Origin: Lingula anatina
Lineage: Eukaryota > Animalia > Brachiopoda
NCBI GenBank assembly: GCA_051362555.1
Contig: CM120645.1
Coordinates: forward strand, 9,796,001-9,860,000
Reading direction: 5' to 3'
DNA length: 64,000 nt
Shown piece after piece: positions 1-64,000 of the stretch (positions are counted from its first letter, which is position 1; each line of letters starts with the position of its first letter). Under the pieces are notes generated by a model that had not been told where the DNA came from, made no database searches, and worked only from the letters and a program-made list of their open reading frames with translations. A program made the translations under genes and the position numbers.

Positions 1-23
1 TAAGTAAACAACATTAGGGATAC

Positions 24-3000
24 GTGCACAGCAATAAACAATCAGTCAATTCAAACAAAATTTTGGAACAACCTCAAATAGACATTTCAGCCTTGTTAAA
101 AGGTAATCCATTGGAACACAACTTGGTAGAAATTAGTGTAGGTAAACTTCAATTCAATGCTCTTGTAGACACAGGTGCTTCTGTATCATGCATTTCTAAA
201 AATCTAGTATCTAAACTGTGTCCCGATGTCAGTTATCAACCTTCATTTCTGAAAACTGTAAGAGGTGTAGGCGGTGAAAATCACCCAATCTTTGGTTGCA
301 TCATGCTGTCTTTTTCCATTGATAATACCACCTTTCATCACAAATTTCATGTCCTTGAACGTCTACCAAGGAATGTCATCTTAGGTATTGATTTCCTACA
401 GAATAATTCAGCATGTATGGACTTCAGTTCTAAAACCCTCACTTTCAAGGACAGCATAACAATTCCTACTCACCAACAACAACATTTTGGAATGGCCAGA
501 CCTGTTTCAGATACTACCATACCTCCCCAATCTGAAAGCTTAGTTCCCCTCAAAATATCAAGACACAAGAATGCAAAGTGTAAAACGTTCTTATTAGAAC
601 CAGCAGGGAATAAGTATTTCACTTCAAGGTGTGTTGTCAGTATGAATAATGGCAAGGTTTTGTGCAGGGTATATAATCCAACAAATAAAACAATCAAAAT
701 ATCCAAAAGGGAAGTGTTAGCAAAAGGATACCACATAGATGAAGACAGTGTTTCAGCTTTACAAGAGAAAACGGAAGTCCATAAAGAGATGGGTGCTCCA
801 ACTTGCAATGAAAAAGAAAAGAAACAGTCAGATGAAATAGCTATTGTGGATACATGTATCATGCAAACAATCCAGAATGATGACGGTCCTTCAAAACAGA
901 GAGTTAAGTGGGGTGAAGACAAAGTGAAAATAGCAGAAAGCATAGGCATAGATTTACAAAATGCAGATTTAACTGAAGATCAAAAATACCAATTATCAGA
1001 CCTCATAGGTAAATACCGCTCTGTTTTTGCCACGGACCTCTCGGAATTGGGTAAAGCAAATGTAGCCCCTCACAAAATAGAGACAGGAAACGCACCACCA
1101 CAGAGACAAAGATTCTATAGACAAACACCAGAAAAGAGACAAGAGACCCTCAAACAAACACAACAGATGCTGGACAATGACATCATAGAACCTTCTACCT
1201 CTCAGTGGGCTGCACCAGTGGTTTTAGTGCAAAAGAAAGATGGAACGTATAGATTTGCAGTGGACTACAGAAGATTAAACAGTGTGACTGAACCAATAAG
1301 CTGGCCACTACCACGGTTAGAAGACATCCACGAGACCGTAGGAGAAGCAAAAGCTAAGTTCTATTCTTCACTTGATATGGCCTCTGGATACTGGCAGATA
1401 CCCTTGGACCCACTGACCAAAGAGAAAACATCCTTTGTCACTCACAATGGCCAATACCAATTCAAACGCTTACCTTTCGGCCTTCGGAATTCGGGTACAA
1501 CCTATCAACAGATCATGTCACAAATATTGCAGGATTTAAATTGGAAAATCGCACTTGCCTACATTGATGATATTTTAGTTTTCAGCCAGACATTTGACCA
1601 ACATTTGTACCATTTAGAACTTGTCTTCCAAAAGCTTCAAGCAGCAAATCTAACTCTTAAACCTGCAAAATGCAAATTTGCCTCAAAGAAAATCCACTTT
1701 TTAGGCCATGTTTTATCAAAAGAAGGAATACAAGTAGACCAACAAAAAATTGAGGCAGTTAAGTCTTTTTCAACCCCCAAAACAGTCTCACAGGTACGTA
1801 GTTTCTTAGGCCTCACAAACTATTACCGAAAATTTGTCAAAGACTATGCTAAAATTGCAACACCTCTGCACGTTTTAACCCGAAAAGACCAAAAGTTTGA
1901 ATGGACGAGTGAGTGTGAAAAGGCATTCCAACACCTGAAGCAAGCTTTAACAACTACTCCAATTTTGGCATTTCCGGATGTTTCGAAACCTTTTAAACTG
2001 ACAACCGATGCCTCAGGTACAGCAATTGGGTATATGCTTAGCCAGAAAGATGAGCATAATAAGGAGCATGCTATTGCATATGGAGGAAGAGCCTTAAGTA
2101 GACTGGAGCAGCAGCGCTTCCTTTCCCCTTCGGAATTAGAATGCCTTGCTCTAGTTGAAGGTATAAAGGCATATGAACATTTTCTTGCAAACAAGAAATT
2201 TGAAGTTTACACAGATCACCAACCATTAAAGTGGTTAAATAGTAAAAAGTCATCCAACCAAAGGCTCCAGAGATGGTCTATCTATCTTCAAGATTTTGAC
2301 TTTGAAGTTGTTTATACAAAGGGCGCTACAAATCCTGCCGACTGTCTTTCAAGGCAAACTTATCCAGAAAACCCAGAAGAACAAGACATTGAGGACAAAT
2401 TCCACAAGGCAGACATTGTTACCGTAGAAACAAGCAAAATGCTTAAAGATTTACATGAAATAACATTTATATATCAGACAGAAGCCCCTTGTATTATAGC
2501 TCAAATAGATGGCGCCCTTAAAAAGGCACAGTATCAGTGCTCAGATATTAGAGAAATAATAGAAAATATCAAATCAAACAAGTTCCCTCATTCAGCCCAA
2601 CAAGAATTCCACAAAAACAAATTCATGCTAGATGAAGGAGGTGTGCTTCATTACCTGTACCAACCCAGAAATGAAAGAAAGAACAATGAGGGAAGAACAA
2701 AACAACTACTTGTAGTGCCTCCAGGTTATCGAAAAGAACTTCTACAAGCATACCATGATACACCAGCAGGCGGAGCTCATCAAGGTTTTGACAGGACTCT
2801 TGATGCAATTAGATTGCATTACTATTGGCCAGGAATGTACAAAGACATCCAAAATTACATTCAGTCATGTGACACCTGTCAAAGGTCGAAAAGACATTAC
2901 CATGCTCGCCCAGCACCTATGCAGCCTCTACCTGTCTCAGATGTCATGGAGAGATGGCACATTGATATACTTGGACCCTTGACGAAAACAAAAGAAGGTT

Positions 3001-4064
3001 ACCAGTATATCTTGCTAGTAGTTGAATCATTTTCAAAATACCCAGAAGCATTTCCTTTGTATACTCAAAATGCCAAAGAAGTTGCAGAAGTTCTGTATAC
3101 TCATATCTTCACTCGATATGGTGCACCACGCTCCCTTGTTTCAGATAGAGGTCAAAATTTCAGATCAAAGCTGGTACAAGCTATTTCTGAACTGTTCCAA
3201 GTCAAGCAGGTTTTCACTAGTAGTTACCATCCTCAAACAAATGCTGTCTGTGAAAGAACAAATGGTTTCATTGGACAAACTCTTAGGGCATATGCAGACA
3301 AGAAACAAACCAACTGGCCAAAAGTCCTCCCGTCCATCCTAATGGCTTATCGCAAAACACCTGGAACAGCCACAGGCTTCTCCCCATATTTCTTGCTGTA
3401 CGGACGTGAAATGAGGACACCATTTGATTTGAAAATGGCACCCAGAAATAAACTGCCAAGTTCCATTAAAGAATATGTGGCAGAACATTTAGAAACACTA
3501 GAATGGGGCAGAGAAGTAGCAGAAAAGAACAAACTGCAAGCCAGTGAAGCCAACAGAAAACGGTATGATAAAAGAGCTAAAGAACCAAAGTTTGGAGTGG
3601 GAGACTTAGTGCTGTTACACAACACGGCAGTTCCAGTAGGACTGAAAAAGAAGCTGCACAAAGAATATACAGGACCTTACAGGATTCTAAGAAAAACAGG
3701 ACCCACAAACTTCCTTCTCCGAAGATGTGATAACAACAAACAAAAGGGTCCTGTGCATGCTAACAGACTAAAACCATACCATGAACCTGAGGAAAGACAA
3801 ACAATAAGAAACCAGGAAAACCAACCAAATGTTACAAATCAACCACAAGAACAGAACAGAAATGTGAAACAAATAGAAAAAATTCTTGAGTGCAGTCACT
3901 ACAAAACGGGCCATGTTTATAGGGTAAAATTTAAGGATATACGTAGGACAGAATGGGTACATGAAGAAATGGTACCAGCACAAATGAAAAGAGAGTTTCA
4001 CAATACCAAAACTTTCAAGGGCAAAGTAAGGAAAAGACCTGCAGTTGTCAGGTTAAAGAAGTAG
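24..4064 (+). CDS. pol: Pol polyprotein (aspartic protease, RT, RNase H, integrase, C-terminal chromo-like domain), 1346 aa, no true ATG start
   Basis: Protease LVDTGAS and ILGIDFL. RT FAVDYRRLN, LPFGL, YIDD. RNase H TDAS..., ELECLAL, YTDHQPL, ADCLSR. Integrase H-x6-H...C-x2-C, WHIDILGP, SDRG, CERTN. GPY motif. The frame is open from 18, after an in-frame TAG at 15-17. Confidence 0.97.
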   Translation: MHSNKQSVNSNKILEQPQIDISALLKGNPLEHNLVEISVGKLQFNALVDTGASVSCISKNLVSKLCPDVSYQPSFLKTVRGVGGENHPIFGCIMLSFSIDNTTFHHKFHVLERLPRNVILGIDFLQNNSACMDFSSKTLTFKDSITIPTHQQQHFGMARPVSDTTIPPQSESLVPLKISRHKNAKCKTFLLEPAGNKYFTSRCVVSMNNGKVLCRVYNPTNKTIKISKREVLAKGYHIDEDSVSALQEKTEVHKEMGAPTCNEKEKKQSDEIAIVDTCIMQTIQNDDGPSKQRVKWGEDKVKIAESIGIDLQNADLTEDQKYQLSDLIGKYRSVFATDLSELGKANVAPHKIETGNAPPQRQRFYRQTPEKRQETLKQTQQMLDNDIIEPSTSQWAAPVVLVQKKDGTYRFAVDYRRLNSVTEPISWPLPRLEDIHETVGEAKAKFYSSLDMASGYWQIPLDPLTKEKTSFVTHNGQYQFKRLPFGLRNSGTTYQQIMSQILQDLNWKIALAYIDDILVFSQTFDQHLYHLELVFQKLQAANLTLKPAKCKFASKKIHFLGHVLSKEGIQVDQQKIEAVKSFSTPKTVSQVRSFLGLTNYYRKFVKDYAKIATPLHVLTRKDQKFEWTSECEKAFQHLKQALTTTPILAFPDVSKPFKLTTDASGTAIGYMLSQKDEHNKEHAIAYGGRALSRLEQQRFLSPSELECLALVEGIKAYEHFLANKKFEVYTDHQPLKWLNSKKSSNQRLQRWSIYLQDFDFEVVYTKGATNPADCLSRQTYPENPEEQDIEDKFHKADIVTVETSKMLKDLHEITFIYQTEAPCIIAQIDGALKKAQYQCSDIREIIENIKSNKFPHSAQQEFHKNKFMLDEGGVLHYLYQPRNERKNNEGRTKQLLVVPPGYRKELLQAYHDTPAGGAHQGFDRTLDAIRLHYYWPGMYKDIQNYIQSCDTCQRSKRHYHARPAPMQPLPVSDVMERWHIDILGPLTKTKEGYQYILLVVESFSKYPEAFPLYTQNAKEVAEVLYTHIFTRYGAPRSLVSDRGQNFRSKLVQAISELFQVKQVFTSSYHPQTNAVCERTNGFIGQTLRAYADKKQTNWPKVLPSILMAYRKTPGTATGFSPYFLLYGREMRTPFDLKMAPRNKLPSSIKEYVAEHLETLEWGREVAEKNKLQASEANRKRYDKRAKEPKFGVGDLVLLHNTAVPVGLKKKLHKEYTGPYRILRKTGPTNFLLRRCDNNKQKGPVHANRLKPYHEPEERQTIRNQENQPNVTNQPQEQNRNVKQIEKILECSHYKTGHVYRVKFKDIRRTEWVHEEMVPAQMKREFHNTKTFKGKVRKRPAVVRLKK

Positions 4065-4311
4065 AAGCTACATCTGTACACACAAGTAAATAGGGCAGGT
4101 ACACAGAAGGAGAAATTACTAGGGTTATCGGCAATTAGTAACACTAGATAGAATCGTAAAGTTACAAAGTGCATGTTGTACAAACCCCCAAGACTGTAAC
4201 CTAGCCAGGCATAAACAAACTAAGGTACCATCTATACCCTCCTGTCTTTCATTCTTTAGCCAAATACTCACAGTGGTGCAGGCACCAATGTTATTGTAGG
4301 CGGCAAATCCT

Positions 4312-4335
4312 ATTATTTCACTCATCTTTCTTCAG
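4312..4335 (+). promoter_or_regulatory. Candidate splice acceptor for a subgenomic env mRNA
   Basis: Pyrimidine tract ttatttcactcatctttcttCAG|G lies directly upstream of the ATG-less env frame. Confidence 0.65.
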
Positions 4336-6755
4336 GTACCAAAGGATGTTTTTGCAAGGAAAGGACACAGTCAACCCAGACCCAAGAGCATGCAATTTTT
4401 AGGCTGCTGTATATACTGATAGGCATCACCATATTGGCAACATTAACGCCAGTGAAAGCTGAAACATTACATCGGGTAAATTATGGGGTTCTCTTTGAGA
4501 AAAAAACAAAAATGATGGTTGCTACAGATTACTGGTTACATACTTTTGAAGTTCAGTTACCACATGTATTAGTTCAACCTCTATTCAATTTATCTTGCTC
4601 ACTAAAGCATCATAGTAAAAAGACATGTAGTTTAATAGATAAGGCTTTAAGAGAATCAAAGAGGATATTTGTAGAAACAGAAAAGAACATCGAACATCTA
4701 GTGGAACGAATCGAAAGGATCTTGCCAAATGCAAGGCATAAGAGATCAGTTCTTCCATTTATAGGTTCAATTAGTAAATCTCTCTTCGGTACAGCAACAG
4801 AGTCAGATGTAAATCGTGTCATACAACATGTAAACATACTACAAGAGAGGCAACAAAAAGCACTCCAATCTTTTGCACGGTTAGCACATACCTTTTCTTC
4901 AGCAACAGCTTTACAAAATTCCCGACTAGATAACATGGTCAAGGCAATTACTAATAATCATGACTTAGCTATGACTTTAGGAGGAGATGTGAAAATAGTA
5001 GAAGAAGAGTTACAGTTTACCTTTAGGACTATGGCAAAACTTATGCAACAATCCACCCTAGCAGCTAAGATTGCAAACAGAATAGAGAACATGTTAATTG
5101 GTTTTGATGAATTAATCCACGGCAAGCTGTCACCATCTATCATTTCTCCACATATACTTACAAAAACACTGCAAAATATTAGCCATGAATTGGGAGGATA
5201 TCAGAACATTGCATCTTTGGACTTAAGATATTATTACTCAGCAGGTCAAATAGCATTAACTAGGCATGACAAAACTGTCAGGATTACACTCAAGGTCCCC
5301 CTTTCACCACTTCAGCAACTTTTTACCCTTTATAATGTGCAAACATATCCTGTACCAATCAACCACAGTCTGAATTACTCATCACAACTTTTAGATTATC
5401 CAAACCTTATTGCCATAAGTTTAGACAACAACTATCATTTCCATCTATCAAAAGAAATTCAACCCCTTTGTTTAGGAGAAAATATTCAAGTCTGTTTCAT
5501 GACAAGATTGACAATACGCAAGGAAAGTTCATGTATCATGGCAGTGTACAATAGCAACAAAACTGCTATCAAAGACAAATGTAATTTCAGACTTTTAAGT
5601 AAACGTTTGTCAAATTTAGTACCATTACAAAACAACCAGATTCTCATCCTAAACACATACAATGTGTCCATTAATTGTCCCAAAACAAAATATGTAATTC
5701 CAGGATGTGTGCACTGCATTGCTAATATCCCATGTTCCTGTTCAGTGCAGGATGAAACTTTTATGATCCCAGCCACTTCGTCTTGCCAGAAAGATCACAA
5801 CACTTCCACTATCTTACATGCTGTCAATCTCGCCGTCCTTCAACATTTCTTTGATTTAGAACAATTTTCAGACTTGGCAGCTGATACCCTTTTTGAAGAA
5901 TCTCCTCAGACTGTTATTCCAAAGTTGCAAATATTTCAACATAACTTTTCTCACATAATTGCTCAAGATGAACTGACTCATGTAAGTCTGAAACGTGTAG
6001 CAGAGGCTGCGAAACAAGATAGCACTATTTTCCGCACATTGGCTGAGCCTATCTTGTCAGGGCATATTCCAGTACAACCTCAAGATATTTTCGAAGACTG
6101 GAAAACTATACTTTCATGCATAGCTGTTGTCATGGCATCAATTTCCTTCCTTAGCATTCTAGGTTTCACATACAAACTCAAAGTTTTGTCCACTACAATC
6201 CTCACCTTACAGACAGCTAGAGCAGCATCTATTCCCTCATTCATTTATACAACTCCCTTTCCCATAGCAAACAAAAATGCCACTCATACAGAATTAACTC
6301 TGTATGACATGTTGTTTTTATTTCAAGGTATAATCTGGCTTGCTATCATTGTGTTTCTAGTTGTCATCAAATGTAGAAAATACATATGCAACAAAAACAT
6401 GCATCCCATCCTCTCATTAGAATTAGTCACTGTTGATTCATGCATTACCTTCCCTCTGACTAAACTGTCAGCCTGTCCACACAACTGGAAAATAGAGGCA
6501 ACTACTGTCTTCAAAAATATACAAGTCCAAGGTGTAGTTGCACCCACAATTCTTTTGGAATGGGACGACATTCACATTACAAATGTAAAAACAAATGAAG
6601 ATTGCCCATTGCCCTCAACTATCAGTGTCTTGCCTCATGTAGCCTGGTACCTCAAAAAGTTACTACAACACCCTTACGAAGCACACTTCTTTGTAGAACA
6701 TCATGGTTTCATAACTCCAATGACAATCACTCCTCACAACAGTGGCTCAGAGTAA
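4336..6755 (+). CDS. env: Envelope-like class I fusion glycoprotein (baculovirus F / errantivirus Env type); N-terminus probably supplied by splicing
   Basis: The frame is open from 4260 with no ATG before the signal-like segment IFRLLYILIGITILATLTPVKA. Furin site RHKR (4734-4745) is followed by fusion-peptide-like SVLPFIGSISKSLFGTATESD. It also has a heptad-rich region, a Cys-rich region, many N-x-S/T sites and two hydrophobic segments near the C-terminus. Confidence 0.88.
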
Positions 6756-7360
6756 ATATCTCCAAAATGGGAGACAAATAAGAATAAGTTAAAAAGTTTA
6801 TCCAAAACATATCAAAATGCTTGAATTGATTGATATTGTTGCTGTGCATTTACAATAAATTACAAGGGATAGCTGGACAAAGAGGTTCCCACTATACCAT
6901 TTCAGTATTGGTACATGTATATATTTGTAGAGAAGTTTATTTAGACATATGGAACTGATACATACAAATGTTAAATGCAATGTATACCTTAGCTTGTAAT
7001 GTGTAAATATAGATATGTGCTATATAACTGTTTTTCAATTCTTCATGAATGTAATATTACATGTTATTATGGTAATAGTAATGATACATATATTTTATTT
7101 CTTATATGCACCCTTAAATGCTTAAATAATACTGCATAAAACTAAATTTATTCAATATCTTCCCTTCAAAATGTGAAGTATTGTAATATACATACTAGTA
7201 TTATCATTATTCCATACTGCTTTTAAATATAATGTCCTTACCAATGCTTATCATTCAATATTCAATTTATGTACAAGATATTGGCCTTATAAGCAAACTC
7301 CCAATTAGTGACGGTGATTTCATGGTAAATATGAGGACATATTTAAAAGGGCCCCAGGGA

Positions 7361-7941
7361 TGTATCATAGAGGTGATTTCATGGCCAAATTTAATTTCAG
7401 AAAATCCCTATTTTAGTTCAAGTTATATGTAATTAAATTATATTTAGATGTCCTAAAATTATATTAAGTGAATATTTAAGTAAATTACATTAAACTTCTA
7501 CATAAATCAAGTCAGATGTCAGTGTATAATAAATGTATTTAGATGTCCAAGTTAAAATTACATTAAAGTTCTGCAGGATGTTTTCAGGACTGAATAACTT
7601 CATTTATGGCTTCATCTTCTAGTTAAAGTTTAAATCAGCCTTGGTCTAATTGTGTTAAAGGTCTCCTGCAATATGTCTTAATTCTGTTAATTGGCTTCAA
7701 TATCTCTGACTTGCTTAAGGAATCACTGTAATGTAATTGTCCTTGTGTATTAGTATATAAGGAGAAGAATTTGCAATATACTGTCATTAGAGTCTTGTGT
7801 CTTCACATGAAGTAGTCAGAAGTAGTGTAGAGTAGAACATATAGTCAGCAGAAAGAAGTGGACCAGTGACACCAATACCTGGATTGTACAGAATAAAGGT
7901 AGAGATCACACAGATTGTAGTGAGTCTCTAGAAACGTAACA
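7361..7941 (+). repeat. 3' LTR (~580 bp)
   Basis: Starts TGT right after AAAAGGGCCCCAGGGA (PPT-like, 7345-7360). TATATAA at ~7754-7760, AATAAA at 7892-7897, ends CGTAACA at 7941. The partner LTR is outside the window, so the boundaries are inferred. Confidence 0.72.
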
Positions 7942-8614
7942 ACGGCTTGGTGTTAGAGGTCACACAGAGATTAGGCGAGTTCAGAAAATAAAAAAGAATT
8001 AAGAGAAAGAAGAAAAAATTTTAAAAATTAGCAGCAAGATTTCAGCATTTTAGTTCATTTTAAAATACTAAAATATATTCTACCCATGAGGGTCTGAAAC
8101 ATTACAGATTGAGGGATTCAAGTCCTTTAAGCTTATGGGATTATTAGAATATTGATTTCCAAAATATGACACCATTTCATAAATCATCTGTTATTAACTT
8201 GTCAGTGTACATAAACACCATGTGAAGGGACAGGTAATTTCAAAGTGTTGCATCCCTGATTGATATTTCAAACCCAATACATTCTGACATCATGTTATTC
8301 AATTTCAAACCTATATAAAAAAAGAAGAAAAAGAAAAAAAAAAGAAAAGAAAAATAAGGAAAACATCTACATCTTTGATAGCAAAAACCAGACACATAAG
8401 GCGGCTATGCATTTCATTTTAAACTAATGTCCCCCCTACTGCAGTTTCCTTAATCTATCATTATAAATAGAAATATTTAACCTGCACATCACACCACATG
8501 CCATGCATGTAGGCTAAAGTCACTCCATGAGTCTGCTGTTTGATAATATCAAGAATATATTACAAAAACATTCTTGATAACATCTTTTAGGTGCTTAGGT
8601 CAAAATATTTTTGC

Positions 8615-8879: not shown

Positions 8880-9310
8880 TAACCTTGCCAAGGAGGTTAT
8901 ATTTGCATCTTCACCATTTGACTGTCTGTTTGTTTGTCTGTCTGTCTGTCTGTCACAAGCCTAACTGTAACTTGTGACACATAATGTAAGTTAATCATGA
9001 CCAGAAAATGGCTCTTCGACTTTTACATAAATAAAGAAAAAGAAAAAAATTTATTCAGTGGGGTTATCACGCATGTACATAAAGTAATTCCATATCATGA
9101 AATGTGATCAAATAAAAGGTCTGTTTGTTTGTCTGTCTGTCTGTCTGTCTGTCACCAGCCTAACTCTAAAAGTTTAGGATGGATTTTGATGAAATTTTCA
9201 GGATAGGTTACAAATGGACTGACTTAAAAGTGATTACATTTTGGTGACAATGCATTCATTCATTAATGTTTTAATAGTTATAGATAAATTTTTTGTCTTG
9301 GCAGAGTTAG
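8880..9310 (+). mobile_element. Non-autonomous Helentron-associated (HINE/DINE-1-like) element, interrupted by a copy of its downstream flank
   Basis: 5' ACCTTGCCAAGGAGGTTAT, an internal (GTCT/GTTT)n microsatellite, core ggattttgatgaaattttcagga, and 3' subterminal inverted copy CTTGGCAGAG at ~9297-9306. This layout is typical of HINE-type elements. Confidence 0.6.
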
Positions 9311-9485: not shown

Positions 9486-12445
9486 TTGAATTTTAAATTA
9501 CAAGCTCAAATCATTGAACCAAACGGGGTTCATGGTACCGCAAGTGTATCACAGAATTAATCGAAATGTATATATGCAGTAACTGAAACTCTTGGTAGAA
9601 TCTGATATCTCTTCAATTTTAATGTTTAAATGTACCTTTCCATACTGCAGTGTTAATGTATTGTATTAGCTTAAAGCTTGTACAGTTCATAGTATGTGAT
9701 GTCCTAATATAAAGTGCCTGTAAAGGGGTATATGACATTCTACATCATTTTTTTTTTTTTTTGATCAAAATGCAAGAGATCATGGAGATTTTCAAGTTTT
9801 TAAAATGCTACACATTTAAACAATATTAAGTGGATAGAAGACACATTAATATTTTTTAAAAAGGAAAGAAAAATCCATTTCCTATTTTCTGAAAAACTCG
9901 TTAAATTGTAAACAAATTCAGGTAAAATTCCATTAAATATTGCTGCATGCATTGTATTGCATCTGGATCATGTTCCCCCTTTATATTGAAGAATATTGCT
10001 ATATTGTGGAACCTCAAAAGCCCAATAAACTTCTAAAACACTAACAAAGAATGAATCTACATATCTGAGCCATTTTTAGTAAAATCTATATACCACATAC
10101 AAGGTGTGTACAACTACTTACTACAAAATTAATCAATGACTTTCACACCTCAGGTGAGATAGACAGCTAGTAGACAAAAACAGGAAACAAATCAGTAGTA
10201 GATTGCTACTGCCTTTAAAAAGCAATATCACAAGACTTTGTGTGGCTATGGCAACCAATAGCAGTAAATGGAACTGCTTAGTGTGTTTCCATGCCTTGGA
10301 GCAAAGCTTACATTCTTTTTCAATTAGCACTATAAGTGGAATAGTTTTTGTTTTCATTGATAAGGCCATTAATCTGTTCACAACGACAAGGAATGCAATA
10401 CCACTTACATGTTCAGCTATATTTCTAAGTCAATATTGTCTGCCCATCATTTTTGAAAATTTTTGTTTCCTTCATTTTCAAATAGAAAAAAAACAAATAA
10501 ATTGGCACCATCCATTTAATCTGACAAACAAGCAGAATTCCTCAAATTAAGGAAAATCTATAAATTAACCCAAATTTTCTCAAGTTTTAGACTTGAAACA
10601 AAATTCATTCATTTGCAGATGTACAGTCTCTTCCATCTTTCCATTTTTCTCTCTTCCTCTTTCCCTTTTTTTTTGTTGTATACAAAAAGAATAAAATTGA
10701 GCCGTTTAACAACAAGTCACATTTTCTGCTATAGTGGGATCTTTAATGATTGTCAACTAAAGTGCTTGTAAAAGAAAAAGAAAAAAAAACCAAGTACCAC
10801 TTGAAATGGCATCTTTCATCTGACTGCATACTTGAAGTCAAAGCAGTCAAAGCCACACAAAAAGAAGTCTTGAAGATAAAATGTGAAAATTTTTATGTAA
10901 TATGTTCTGTGACTTGGTGACTATGATAGATGAAGAAATCCACACTCCTTCCCTTTAAAATGAGGGGTAGTCTCACAGTTAATGACTTGGTATGAATGGG
11001 AGCAAAGGTGTACTATATCCCATGTGAAACCCAAAACATGGAAAATATTTTTTTTCTGTTTTTTTAACAACTTTTGTCCTCAGTTTTCCCATGGGGGCAT
11101 GACATACGGTGGTTTGAAAAAAAAAACTTATTTTATTTATCATTTTTAAGTGGGTGGCAGTTTAACCAGTGGAAAAAAGTAAAAAAGTAAAAAGTCACCT
11201 GAATGACTAAACCTCGGTCAAAACTTTTGACACATTATTTCTGAAAACACCAGAAGCTGAGCCCGGCTTGCAAATTTAACATGTTCCTTGAAATACACGA
11301 CAGAGGGTCTTTGAAAGGAAGTAGAACCTTTACCAGAAATAGCTGTTCATTCTTTATCATCTCATTAATATTTATAATATATATAATTTACAGGATAAAC
11401 TGACAGAGGCTATATTTGGCATTACTCCAACTGATGTAAAAGAAAGAGGGGTACCATTAATGGAGAGTAGAGGTACCTTGGTCCCTGGTTCCATGCCAAG
11501 TACTCTTAATTAATTTATCACATTATTGAACAGAAGAATTATATATTGTATGGTCAGGGACCTATGAACACTGAGATATATAGGCCAGAGCAGGACTCCA
11601 GGCTCAGCCCTTGTACTGCACTAAAAACTTGTCCCTGAATAATGTTTAAATGTTTTAACTGCCATTATCTGTAAACAGTATAATAGATACACAAACCGAT
11701 TTCATAATTCTCCACTTTTATCACCTCTGCCTTTGTCCCACATGATATTGTAGTGTCATGGCTATTATATCATTGTGTGATGTTATAAGAATATATTCGA
11801 TCGACATACTAAATTGTATTACAATGATTACAGTGATTTGAAACATTTATTGTATGCATAGTCATGCCCCATGCATGAACTCAGGACGTTAGGTTTGCTG
11901 GATTCGTGACAAATGAACAAAAAAGATGAAACTTGCACTTTATCAACTGTAAGTACCCCTGATTAACTCTTCTCTGTGTATGAAACATTAAACATCACGT
12001 TTCTTTAAAAAACCCTTCTTACGAGACAGTATTGTGTGTGAGTGTAATTCACGAGGAAGTCTTTCATTTTTTAGTGACATAGAGAATTAATGTATCATCT
12101 AGAGTAGCAAGACGTGAGCTTGTCACATTCAGGGAGATTTGCTTTGAGTAATGAACGAGAAAATTCAATAGCAAACTGTATTTTCATTTTTCATTCCTTT
12201 CTAAAAATTCACTACCCTTACAATTTGTCAGTGAACTTAATGCCAATATTAAGTAAGCTCGTGCTGTTTAACAGATCTTCAAAAAAATGATGACTAAGTT
12301 GGTGACAATTTTTTTTGTGCTTGCACAGGATCTTAAAAATGAAGACGTAAAAAACTATATAGAAAAAGGCTATTGACAATGTACATCTAAAGACTGGCAG
12401 GTATGATACATTTAGCCCACACCCAATGCAAGCACAGGCAACTAA

Positions 12446-12701
12446 GACCCCATTCCTATACCTAGATTGATCTAAGAGGATCGATCCATCTCCGAGGGAT
12501 TTCTCACTAAATTACTTTCAGCTTAAGTGGCTCTGATGTCTGGCACAATTACTGAAGCTGTTAGGGGGTAATTAACTTTTGTTTAGCAGTTTTAGTAGGT
12601 GTGCCTAGACATCTAAGCTGATAAAGCTGTATGCAATTTAGTGAGAAACCCCTCAGAGATGGATTGATCCTGTTAGAAAATCTAGTTATGGGAATGGGGT
12701 C
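12446..12701. mobile_element. Fold-back MITE, PIF/Harbinger-like, copy 1
   Basis: GACCCCATTCC...GGAATGGGGTC with ~115-bp imperfect inverted arms, and TAA on both sides (12443-12445, 12702-12704). Confidence 0.85.
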
Positions 12702-13127
12702 TAAGTCTCAGCAAAGAAACATCCCTCTTGATAAGCTATTTTCTTTAATTTTAAAAATGTGGCTACTTAACTCCCTGAACCCTTACACCTGTGGAAGAAA
12801 ATGAATCTAATACAATGGTTGATCGTTTTTCATAAATTGTCAATGTAGCTAACATGTACTACATGCAAAGGTCACATCACTTGCCCTAACTCTGTGGGAG
12901 TTAATTGTCCAGTCAAATGTCCGGCATAATAAATAGCCCCTGGTCAGGCCGTGACAGACACCCCTATAACTGTGGTGTAGACTTGTGGTAAGACGTAATA
13001 AATAATGTAACCAATTATTGACAAAGCCTTGCTGAACACAAATATTTTATAATGGCTGCTGTACGTGTATGTAATGATCCTTGGGAGCAACCACTTCAGT
13101 ACAATGTAGCTATCTTCAGGTGCATAA

Positions 13128-13385
13128 GAGCACATTCCAATACCTAAATCGATCTAACAGGATCGATCTTTCTGAGAGGGGTTTCTCGCTAAATTGCTTT
13201 CAGCGTAAGTGGCTCTGATGTCTGGCAGGCTTACTGAAGCTGTAAGGGGGTAATATAAACTATCATCTAACAGCTTCAGTAGGCATGCCAGACATGTAAG
13301 CTGCTTAAGCTGAAAGCAATTTAGCAAAAAACCCTTCAGAGATGGATTGACCCTGTAAGATCGATTTAGGTATGGGAATGGGGTT
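13128..13385. mobile_element. Fold-back MITE, same family, copy 2
   Basis: Aligns over its whole length with 12446-12701 in the same orientation and is preceded by TAA. Confidence 0.85.
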
Positions 13386-14570
13386 TTAGCCTACATTATA
13401 ATACTCTAATTGCAGCCCTGATGTGATCATGCAGTTATAAATGAAAGGAAACACCTGAAATCAATGTGGATTGATCCTAAATATAATTCTTAAACTGCTC
13501 ACTTGTCATAAAATAGTTCCTGCCTCTACTATCAATTAAAACATTATGTTGAAAGGATGGAGAGAGCAGAAGATGGTAATTGGGCTTTAAGGTGAAAATA
13601 TTAAAAAGATAATGAATACTTGTGTCAAGAAGTACATGTTTTATCTTGCTTGGGATTTTCAAACTGAACCTTAAATCCCATTTACTTATTTTATAAAATC
13701 TTAAACCACATCATTCTTCACCATCCTACCTAGAACTTACGATCCTTTTTTTCACCCACCTAGCAGTCAAAAACATGACATTCTATGCTTGTTACTCTAG
13801 ACTATTTTGCAAACATTTAATATCAAATTACGACTGATGACGTCATTTTATGCACTTGAGTAGGCAGGCAATGGCCAAATACCCTTTGACTAAGAAATGT
13901 TGCAGTCAAATTGATACAGTACTTAAACAGGCAGAATAGAGAGGGTGATCTACAAGTACTTTACACTGCCATATGCTGGTATTCATTGACATCTCATATA
14001 AACGTCCAACTTAAAGTATTTTTTAAAGTTAAATAGCACAGGTTTTGAGCCATGAGAAAAGCAAATTTTGCAATTTATAAGTTTAATCAATGGCACATTA
14101 GAACATACATGCATATTTGCTTAAAAAACGTTTTTGGCAGGGTGATTGCGTGATTATAATCTTTTGATAGGAGGTGAGTAACGTGTAGCTTGACTTGGTC
14201 TTTGGAGAAAATGGGATTTTACTTGAAAATTCTGGTAAAACTTGTATCCATGAAATGTCTTGCCAAGGGTTACACTTTAATCTGAAATTCAACTCAAATA
14301 AACCTTGACAAACAAAAACCTTCAGTTCTTATTAAACCAAAAAATGAAAAGTCCCAAACCCCCTGCCATGAAAAGTTCATATTTTCACTTCTAAGACCTG
14401 GCACACCACCAGACAAATCAAATTCCTCTGTCATTTATAAGGTGTTCATCAAACCAAGTGTTTTTGTAAGTACTTTATGACCCAACCTTTGGGCTGTTTT
14501 GTCTATAATGTTGGTTTGGAATACATGAAAACTGAAAAAAAGGGAGCTGCATGCCTGTCAAAATTAGTCC

Positions 14571-59059: not shown

Positions 59060-59902
59060 ATGTCAGCGCCCTGGTGCGAAAATGTCAAGATGGAATGGAC
59101 CAAAACATTGAACAAATACATATCGAAGAAACAAAGATTACGACCAAAATTAGTAGCAAGTATCTCAATGGATATATTGGCTGTAGATGTAGGGATAAAA
59201 CCATCATTTCTCTTTGACTATTGGGCAATAACAGCTGCTGAAATGACGAACCTTCTCAAGGAATTAAGGGACTCGGGACTAACTCAACACAAGCTTCAAG
59301 TTTTAGTATTTAATCCACCGGAAGAAATGAACAGTATGGACGATTTTGTACCAGATGTATTCATTTTCGATAGAAATTCCACTGTTGACTGGTTAAACAG
59401 CGTACTGAATGGTGGCAGCCCGGTTACTGTTGTGGACGTATCCAAGGAAGTTGGACGACCCGTGGTGAAAATCGACATTACGGACATTACGGAGCAAGTG
59501 GGTGGAATTATTACCCATATTCAGCTGAGCAGGGAATTTGATGTGGTGGAAATTCCTACCTCTGCTGAGTGGAATTTGACCACATTATCTGGGGTTCTTT
59601 TGGGGTACCCGTTCTCATACTGGTACCACCCACCTTCCCCTGACGCTGATAACTGTCTGGGTTATACACCTCTAGTGAACTATCAGGTGACCTGTAAGAT
59701 GAACACTGACGGTGCCATATCAGCTAAGAAAGAGCTTGTGGATCATACTTTGTATTCTTTCAGCATTCCCCACAGTGTGAACAGTGAACAAACGATTAAT
59801 TTCTGGTTTAAAAGTTTGCAAGGTAAATTCCAGAGACAGAATATATTTTTGGATCCTTACTTATCACACAAAGATATTACTCTTCCATCTGTGGCTCTTT
59901 AA
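59060..59902 (+). CDS. C1orf74: UPF0739 protein C1orf74 homolog (DUF4504 family), single coding exon, ~280 aa
   Basis: Motifs recognised from memory of the family: DILAVDVGIKPSFLFDY, WNLTTLSGVLLGYP, DNCL...PL, LYSFSIP and C-terminal TLPSVAL. The ATG at 59060 (AAGATGT) is preferred over the AT-rich upstream extension from 58934. Confidence 0.88.
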   Translation: MSAPWCENVKMEWTKTLNKYISKKQRLRPKLVASISMDILAVDVGIKPSFLFDYWAITAAEMTNLLKELRDSGLTQHKLQVLVFNPPEEMNSMDDFVPDVFIFDRNSTVDWLNSVLNGGSPVTVVDVSKEVGRPVVKIDITDITEQVGGIITHIQLSREFDVVEIPTSAEWNLTTLSGVLLGYPFSYWYHPPSPDADNCLGYTPLVNYQVTCKMNTDGAISAKKELVDHTLYSFSIPHSVNSEQTINFWFKSLQGKFQRQNIFLDPYLSHKDITLPSVAL

Positions 59903-61583: not shown

Positions 61584-62669
61584 TCAAGTCTGTATATACT
61601 CCCTGATGTGATTGACAAGGATTTCATATTCGGAGGCATGTCTGTATTTTCCTTGCATTTTGTGAAGATGTTCCTTCGACTCACACCCGGCCCAGTTGTG
61701 CAGTCTGCCACACGGGTTTTGCGCGCCGGAATTGGGGCGATTTGCGAAGTGAATCGGCAGAGAGTTGTACACCTTGGACGTCGGTGGCGTTGCGGCGTCA
61801 CGCGCTTCATTTCTATACGAGGTGATTTTGCCGTTGATGGCGGCACGAAGGCGACGCCAGTGAGGTTTGGAAGTTGAGACAGGACTGGAAGAGCAGCCTT
61901 TTTTCAGTATTGGCTTTTGTAAGAAAGTTGAGATTTTTCTTTCTAAATTTTGCCTGTTTTCTACCTCCTTCAGTTTCAGATCTTGCAAAGACGCGGTAAC
62001 AAGTTGGACAGCTGAGGCGTCATTTTTATTTTTGCTACTCGGCGGAGAGGGAACCAGCGTTTTCTTTTGCGCCATCTTTTCCACCTTGCCTCTAGGGTTT
62101 ACCTTTTGAAAACGCGAGGAGTCAGTTCGTTTGAACTTCTTTTGGTGAATGTTGGGAATTTTGCAAGTCTGAACAGAGTCACTTGATATCGATAACCTGT
62201 TAATTGGAGGAGCCAAAAGTTGGCGATTCGACGCTGGGCTCAGGATTTCCTCCACATCAGACGCCGAATAAGGTCTTTCAGGACGACAAGGAGTTAACTC
62301 AGACACGTCTTCAATGTTGGCAAATTTCACTGTGCGCTGGAATACAGGCGGGCAACTTAAAGTGCCGTCATTTTCGCACCCAGTCGATTTTGTGATGACG
62401 ACTTTGGGGCGACGAGGTCTTTTCGGCAACAGAACTTCGTTGTCCGGAAAGCTACGAGCACGCGCAACTTGCGGTCTCTTAGTTTTACCTGTATGTGAGG
62501 AGGCTGAATTCTTCCTAACTTTGTGCTGTTCGTTGACGCAATTCTCCGTCTTTTTCTTGCGACTAGCTTCAAGAGTTTGTGCTTTGTTCGACAGCATGTT
62601 TGTACGCACTCTGGAGGCAGATGATAATTTGTGCCTTGTCTGTTTTTCCAAAGTTTTTGTGCTTGCCAT
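61584..62669 (-). CDS. Hypothetical basic, Ser/Pro/Lys/Arg-rich protein (~361 aa) or one large exon
   Basis: Over 1 kb open in an AT-rich genome, with higher GC and CpG. ATG at 62669 sits in a good context (GTAATGG). No recognisable domain. Confidence 0.7.
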   Translation of the reverse strand: MASTKTLEKQTRHKLSSASRVRTNMLSNKAQTLEASRKKKTENCVNEQHKVRKNSASSHTGKTKRPQVARARSFPDNEVLLPKRPRRPKVVITKSTGCENDGTLSCPPVFQRTVKFANIEDVSELTPCRPERPYSASDVEEILSPASNRQLLAPPINRLSISSDSVQTCKIPNIHQKKFKRTDSSRFQKVNPRGKVEKMAQKKTLVPSPPSSKNKNDASAVQLVTASLQDLKLKEVENRQNLERKISTFLQKPILKKGCSSSPVSTSKPHWRRLRAAINGKITSYRNEARDAATPPTSKVYNSLPIHFANRPNSGAQNPCGRLHNWAGCESKEHLHKMQGKYRHASEYEILVNHIREYIQT

Positions 62670-64000
62670 TACACCAGAAAGCAAAAACCTTTTTCTTTTA
62701 CTCTGTAAATTCGTCACCGGTACGTTTACTGGAAGAATTTCATGTCACTGCGCTATAATTCAGTATCTCATAACGCAAAATGGCTCGTTAAAAGTCCACT
62801 GGCGAGTATGGTATATTTCGGATATTTCACTGCTGCTGTATGTTAAATTCAACGTCTTCACCCTGATAAGGTCGCTGCATAATGTATGGAAAATGCCACT
62901 TTTTGTTCTTTTAACGCATAAAATACACGGCTGAGTTTATGCATATAAATGGTTCATTATAAGGCTTGAGCTGCCAGAATCGCTGCATGTTCGCTCTTTA
63001 AGGCCGTGATGACGCATTCCTTACATTATCACGCTTTATCAAAACAAATCAAGCACTTTAATTTTCTCGTCTTTATAGGCACCAAGAGGTTTTTATGTCC
63101 ATTTTCTGCAACTCTAGCGCGCAGTCACTCCTGAGTATAACTCTAGGACCTGGCCAGGGTTGGCTTAAAGTACAAGGTTTTAACTCTTCTTTGGCCACCT
63201 TTTCTGGACACCGTCCGCCCTTATTTATTTGGGCCCATAATCGACTTGTCGCCGATGGCCAAGGCCTCGAGTTTGAATTGGAATTCACATTGTTCTTTAA
63301 GCTGCTGCGAGATTTATAACCAGAAATGTATGACGCATTTACACTGCACGTTTTTGTTCCTGCCTGGTCCTAACGCGCGCTGTGCTCTAGATCTGGCGTT
63401 GCCTGTCCACAGTGGCTCCCTGACGACTGCACTAGTAGACCTTGTTTTGAGGGCATGGTTGATCTTTAATTAACTTGTTTGTCTTTTCACACTACGTGGT
63501 ATTTATTTGGACGCGTTATTGTTGTTTACGATGCTACTTTTGACCTTTTCTGAAAATTGTGCTGAAATAGCAAAGGTTAATTTGGAACTGTTCTAAGAAA
63601 CTTTACCATTAAAGAAAACAAACCGTTACATCAAAGTTAGATGTTAAAACGTATGTAGATGTAAAAATAGTAGGTAGTCTTTGTTTGTCATTGCGGTTGC
63701 TATGCAACACATCAATGTTGTTCTTAGTGGCGATTGCGTTTTCTTAGAACGCACTGTTTGCCATTTTAAAACTGTGCCCGTTGTATCCATTTTACTTCTA
63801 TTGAAAATCTTTTATATAATTACTGAAATTTTAAAAACTGCCGACCATGTAAGAAAAATAAAATCCGTATTTTTATTTAATCAGTAGAGTTCACTGTATA
63901 TTACTTAAAATACAGGCCAGGTTCTATGGGATTTTACCACCAGTATGAAAGAAATGCACCTAACTGTCTTGGACTTGTTTTTACAGCTTTGAATACTTCA

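Follow-up and report, generated by a model that had tools for sequence, protein, structure and literature searches.

A Ty3/gypsy element in the brachiopod Lingula anatina with an F-type Env and a predicted matrix-like tail domain

Intact Ty3/gypsy elements with an F-type env gene have been described across invertebrates by Chary & Hayashi (eLife 2026, PMC13524379), and the parts of that survey considered here report mollusc, annelid and chromodomain clades, the last comprising 'ancient errantiviruses' of Cnidaria, Mollusca and Annelida. The survey lists numerous elements from molluscs, annelids and nemerteans; 'Mollusca' occurs 92 times in its supplement, twice per row in the 25 rows inspected, all of them ENV_F. 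For Lingula (LinAna2.0), the survey gives 11 POL and 17 ENV hits with the entry 'yes - No intact copies', and its list of ancient errantiviruses, in the same parts, holds no brachiopod element. Here, we analyzed a 64,000-nucleotide stretch of Lingula anatina DNA (contig CM120645.1; hereafter the window), of which positions 1..7955 likely represent the right-hand ~8 kb of a recently inserted Ty3/gypsy element. The element is a new member of the described group, possibly the first in Brachiopoda with open pol and env. An initial annotation of the window had regarded an F-env Gypsy element outside insects as unusual, which the many published cases do not support. It had also placed the novelty probably at the level of family and architecture, and for architecture this stands for a reason that it did not foresee: F-env elements outside insects are already known, and the new part is the combination of Env with a matrix-like tail domain.

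With the ancient errantiviruses, as characterized in those parts of the survey, the element shares a lophotrochozoan gag-pol-env organization, an F-type ectodomain, a furin site, a fusion peptide, a chromodomain-like integrase tail and low copy number, and its nearest named pol and env relatives are molluscan. The published analysis was limited to the ectodomain between the signal peptide and the first transmembrane helix (TM), unlike the tail studied here; its main text makes no mention of matrix, splicing, readthrough, late domains or the endosomal sorting complexes required for transport (ESCRT), and matrix is absent from seven supplements as well, the figures and GitHub files lying outside this comparison. 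The Drosophila errantiviruses gypsy, ZAM and idefix, in the portion of Senti et al. (EMBO J 2025, PMC12992720) considered, likewise have env-F after pol, a furin site and a fusion peptide. Their Env is described there as having a single TM between its ectodomain and its cytoplasmic tail, whereas the window Env adds a signal-like segment, a second TM and a folded domain.

Env and its predicted tail domain

The env frame is stop-free over 831 codons (chance ~1e-25) and encodes the following features.

4260..6755, + strand: env open frame, lacking its own AUG ahead of the signal peptide (open reading frame (ORF) list, ATG scan)
4392..4460, + strand: N-terminal signal-peptide-like hydrophobic stretch (hydropathy, alignment)
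4461..6107, + strand: F-type class I fusogen ectodomain
4734..4808, + strand: furin site RHKR and fusion peptide (motif, homologues)
6108..6173, + strand: membrane anchor of F (TM1)
6174..6224, + strand: internal signal-peptide-like segment, with K-x-K, a hydrophobic core and a small residue at the predicted -1 position
6225..6311, + strand: short Ser/Thr/Pro-rich stalk, predicted lumenal (composition)
6312..6368, + strand: last membrane helix, with a basic patch after it on the predicted cytosolic side (composition)
6381..6740, + strand: conserved domain with a predicted Mononegavirales matrix-like fold (structure comparison)

The tail that follows the F anchor is the more notable part of this protein. 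Across 56 homologues, the internal segment retains K/R at 94% and 80% and a small residue at position 611 in 95%, a pattern from which signal peptidase would be expected to cleave after about residue 611. The adjoining stalk contains 41 S/T/P and 3.7 K/R per 100 residues, and the stretch after the last helix 25.6 K/R against 0.6 D/E. In a structure search with the tail domain, ranks 1-5 were occupied by five Mononegavirales matrix chains that spanned the whole domain, and the best structural neighbors, nearly full length, were the matrix proteins (M) of Borna disease virus (3F1J), Newcastle disease virus (NDV), respiratory syncytial virus (RSV) and measles virus, together with the Ebola VP40 N-domain. 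In an independent structure library, bornavirus M ranked directly behind chu-like glycoproteins. Modeled structure and topology together suggest that the second Env product is likely a separate membrane-anchored protein with a matrix-type fold. Sequence comparisons of the tail gave only single-member TM noise against Pfam (81 members) and nothing by profile against the PDB; the ESM Atlas returned nothing beyond a lead, with a best value of 0.84.

The chu-like (Jingchuvirales) glycoproteins in BFVD, among them those of Shayang fly virus 1, Taiyuan leafhopper virus and Hubei coleoptera virus 3, provide a close parallel. Ten chu-like entries recur in both searches, matching the whole Env (E 2.5e-22 to 8.3e-12) as well as the isolated tail domain, and on these structural matches therefore appear to carry F together with the same tail domain. 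They differ from the element in belonging to negative-strand RNA viruses and in having proteins of 1040-1235 residues. The part of Viro3D (PMC12583693) considered places Aliusviridae among the class I fusogens.

The ectodomain itself agrees with the initial annotation, which had proposed an F-type class I fusogen with a furin site and fusion peptide: RHKR followed by SVLPFIGSISKSLFGTATESD lies at 4734-4808, and both structure prediction and comparison recover the fold. Full-length homologues carry RxxR in 47 of 56 and FG[TLVI] in 50 of 56 cases, and R118, F123 and F132-G-T-A135 are invariant across 24 aligned Env proteins. With this ectodomain and an uninterrupted env after pol, whose start codon is presumably spliced on, the element shows two features of an errantivirus in the wide sense of Chary & Hayashi. 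The window Env alone matches no Pfam family, and its assignment as F-type draws on homologues and modeled structure; a sequence search against the PDB found nothing, and 22 pattern matches to Env relatives in viral_contigs yielded none that was confirmed. A specific link to baculoviruses is not supported. Baculovirus F (PF12259) is found in 10 of 28 homologues but not in the window Env, and the Env proteins of P0002, P0003 and L002 score above its cut-off; in a whole-Env structure search of the viral library, chu-like glycoproteins and an abalone herpesvirus protein ranked above baculovirus F (ranks 13-16).

This herpesvirus protein (BFVD A0A145VUZ2; 801 residues, uncharacterized) is the second-best structural match of the whole Env (E 4.2e-25), has the same length, and is not among the 50 matches listed for the tail domain alone. 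Its predicted structure suggests that mollusc herpesviruses and such elements may have exchanged an F-type gene. Our literature search on abalone herpesvirus found nothing relevant.

Element organization, expression and insertion history

The remainder of the element comprises pol, putative expression signals and the right-hand terminus.

15..20, + strand: TAG GGA, an in-frame stop directly before pol and likely gag-pol readthrough site (L002/L003 junction)
18..4064, + strand: pol, with protease, reverse transcriptase (RT), RNase H and integrase (HHCC, DDE, GPY; ORF list, Pfam, motifs)
3870..4043, + strand: degenerate chromodomain-like integrase tail (profile match)
4237..4259, + strand: candidate splice acceptor 1 for env (18/20 pyrimidines, phase 0, rank 1 of 263 YAG sites)
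4313..4335, + strand: candidate splice acceptor 2 for env (17/20 pyrimidines, phase 1, rank 2 of 263)
7344..7360, + strand: polypurine tract (12/17 purines; sequence)
7361..7955, + strand: 3' long terminal repeat (LTR), 595 bp, TG...TGTTA (depth jump, junction contigs, read ends, motifs)
7754 and 7892, + strand: LTR motifs TATATAA and AATAAA, respectively (motif scan)
7956..7960, + strand: first bases of host flank, the expected position of the target-site duplication (TSD; empty-allele contigs X1, X3 and X4)

The pol frame is stop-free over 1348 codons (chance ~1e-41) and carries DTG, YIDD, TDAS/ELECL/TDH/ADCLSR, HHCC, D-D-E and GPY, as the initial annotation had stated for the frame and the RT, RNase H and integrase motifs. 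Pfam gives the Ty3/gypsy order of protease, RT, RNase H and integrase, and a polypurine tract (7344-7360) precedes the 3' LTR (7361-7955), both in keeping with Metaviridae as defined in the profile of the ICTV (PMC7879559). The nearest relatives of this pol are molluscan: pols from molluscs and unnamed ones share 51-58% identity with it, whereas the rows that scored highest in the search are long gene models with only 35-45% identity. In a tree of 61 of the 122 sequences (those named, chromodomain-labeled or at least 56% identical, with the Drosophila errantiviruses and the named elements of Chary & Hayashi outside the set), the window pol groups with six pols, five of them chromodomain-labeled, inside a mollusc-containing clade (supports 0.88 and 0.93). 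The integrase tail has no direct match in Pfam or the PDB; a profile made from 39 PF00385-bearing relatives matches it at E 1.6e-16, compared with ~E 1 for 200 shuffles. Two Mytilus gene models annotated as 'chromo domain-containing proteins' (P0010 and P0022) are fusions of the pol tail of such an element to env, an annotation artifact.

Gag lies left of the window; gag, 5' LTR and primer-binding site (PBS) were seen in a full-length metagenomic relative (L002:230-8610, L003:1-9844), which has LTRs, gag-TAG-pol-env order, a chromodomain-like pol tail, a Baculo_F Env and a tail domain ending near LYPNL. Because gag, TAG, GGA and pol stand in a single frame in this relative, the same junction in the window makes TAG readthrough the likely route to Gag-Pol. 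Gammaretroviruses offer a parallel for UAG readthrough. In the consulted part of PMC2754532, a leaky UAG with GGG after it is classed as type III readthrough, and little readthrough was measured for it.

Expression of env likely involves a spliced subgenomic RNA that would bring an AUG from upstream. The initial annotation had called env intact, which holds for the open frame but not for its start: no in-frame ATG occurs from 4260 to the signal peptide, the first lying at 4512 within the ectodomain. The two candidate acceptors head a ranking of 263 YAG sites in 31-7300; relatives L001, L002 and L004 have similar acceptor-like tracts, each followed by its own ATG, and the env-F start of insects comes from an upstream exon according to the parts of PMC12992720 considered. 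No env splice joint was seen in four RNA runs, of which 6-25% each was covered. RNA cover was low and, in X12 and X13, the runs with most internal cover, mostly sense-strand; most reads stem from other copies, since they are only 90-99% identical to the window element.

We compared public DNA runs of the same organism with the window. In three of four runs, from three studies (X1, X3 and X4), the contig match starts exactly at 7956, preceded by 217, 727 and 1012 letters, respectively, that are unrelated to the window; the fourth, X10, gave no informative piece. These contigs represent empty alleles, and the insertion is therefore polymorphic and ends at 7955. Matching RNA reads from other copies also reach 7955/7956. 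The initial annotation had ended the element at 7941 and expected a TSD of ACGG(C) at 7942; with the end at 7955, ACGGC falls within the LTR and the TSD is expected from 7956. We also considered whether the sequence from 7956 onward could be the decayed PBS of a tandem copy, and rejected this because the empty-allele contigs hold the same sequence. No second LTR piece was found elsewhere in the window, nor a tRNA gene for comparison with the PBS. Two integrated copies, that of the window (7951-7955) and one present among X18 reads, terminate in TGTTA and lack the usual CA, whereas X15 and X13 contain reads that run on into CATG and rejoin at 7313 or 7304 (region 7304-7360). Together, these ends suggest a non-canonical TG...TA integrated terminus and tandem LTR-polypurine tract-LTR derivatives resembling terminal-repeat retrotransposons in miniature (TRIM). 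In relative L003, TGTTACA closes both LTRs.

The insertion polymorphism indicates that the family has probably moved recently, in line with the youth proposed initially. X1, which has the empty allele, nonetheless carries 1693 nt of env with 0 differences, and X3 has 1139 nt of env with 6 differences; both point to recent copying. One of these runs may be related to the source sample. Contig depth, which is not equivalent to copy number, was 17-45x that of the flank for the LTR, ~1-4x for pol and ~1x for env, with none for env in X4, and junctions revealed forms with deletions in env (4762 to 6563/6568) or in pol (140 to 3969). This fits few env-bearing copies amid many solo LTRs and deleted derivatives. 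The initial annotation had held that a predominance of copies without intact env would count against it; given the depths and the deleted forms, most family members do lack env, and the objection applies in part. Among the best-supported differences (497 further rows exist), 27 of 38 in pol fall at third codon positions, and the 13 listed in env comprise 6 third-position and 7 other changes, one source copy having a frameshift.

The host is L. anatina and, as had been suspected, not an insect: the ORF at 59060-59899, a single exon on the + strand, is 98% identical to the L. anatina C1orf74 homologue, its sole match. Elsewhere in the window, 8961-9280 is a second high-copy repeat, 1 kb to the right of the element, with 20-45x the depth of the flank and with sharp ends near 9177-9219. 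Direct and inverted repeats of 120-130 bp, nested at 12442-13389, are possibly miniature inverted-repeat transposable elements, and the - strand carries exons of a long coiled-coil host gene (23755-50327) and a low-complexity ORF of 386 codons (61584-62744).

Alternative readings and implications

We consider it reasonably probable that cleavage of Env yields F and a tethered matrix-like protein, the latter organizing budding, so that particles would pass between cells. Gag-Pol would be made by readthrough of the TAG at 15-17, and Env from a spliced subgenomic RNA bringing its AUG from upstream. Signal peptidase would make two cuts, one behind the leader and another after about residue 611, and furin would presumably cut at the RHKR motif, freeing the fusion peptide. 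The other predicted product would consist of a short stalk, a single membrane helix and a cytosolic domain of 120 residues. Like a viral matrix, it would line the inner membrane face and bring F trimers together with Gag particles, and a C-terminal YPxL motif present in many relatives may recruit ESCRT. By analogy with Drosophila gypsy and ZAM, transfer would be between neighboring cells, probably from soma to germ line.

The same protein could instead be that of an ordinary ancient errantivirus, with the tail a long structured cytoplasmic extension of F that remains attached or regulates trafficking and fusion, its likeness to matrix being either a relic or a beta-sheet arrangement that is common and plays no part in budding. 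We judge this rather unlikely: matrix chains fill the first five ranks over the whole domain, bornavirus M stands directly behind the chu-like glycoproteins in an independent library, and the features conserved in the internal segment, namely K-x-K, a hydrophobic core and a small residue at -1, resemble a processing signal more than a plain tail. A two-pass topology, in which the segment after TM1 is cytosolic and the last helix exports the 120-residue domain as an attachment or accessory ectodomain, could draw on the hydropathy of the window protein, for which a simple scan gives only two C-terminal peaks, and on conserved cysteines in the domain and some sequons in homologues. The strong basic patch after the last helix, the acidic S/T/P-rich stretch before it, and a matrix-like fold with terminal YPxL, both suited to the cytosol, make this arrangement improbable.

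Compatible with the proposed architecture is a further reading, namely that this copy was dead on arrival, its open frames reflecting recent copying while env goes untranslated and the family moves without it. The missing AUG, the low RNA cover without a splice joint, the preponderance of LTR or deleted forms in family DNA, the lack of env cover in X4 and the published screen of LinAna2.0, which in the parts considered reports no intact copy (PMC13524379), all favor it. Against this, insect env genes likewise start from an upstream exon, as far as PMC12992720 was consulted, near-identical env is kept in X1 and X3 from two studies, and the furin site, fusion peptide and cysteines are retained; the RNA evidence spans only the stated fraction of each run, with tissues unspecified. 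We regard this reading as quite unlikely.

Extending the proposed cleavage into F and a tethered matrix-like protein beyond this element, we tentatively raise the possibility, still short of an even chance, that Env of a large lophotrochozoan Ty3/gypsy clade is a two-protein cassette that chu-like viruses have in common with it, made up of a class I fusogen and a late-domain-bearing matrix tethered to the membrane. Such elements would then have become enveloped through entry and budding machinery that passed in one piece from or to the jingchuvirus/mononegavirus lineage, not baculoviruses, and the matrix seemingly missing from jingchuvirus genomes would be hidden at the glycoprotein end. Our literature search, with most subscription journals, figures and bioRxiv supplements outside its range, turned up no earlier description of such a matrix-like domain for either errantivirus Env or the glycoproteins of chu-like viruses. 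To our knowledge, Ty3/gypsy Gag has no recognized matrix domain, and Gag of the L002/L003 relative carries no domains other than Retrotrans_gag and a weak zinc knuckle.

The element adds Brachiopoda to the range of such elements, where one published screen had found no intact copy. If true, a tethered matrix-like protein within env would explain how particles reach the membrane and acquire Env, would connect these env genes in origin with negative-strand RNA viruses, would hint at the location of the matrix in chu-like viruses, and would give the element a way to bud out of cells.
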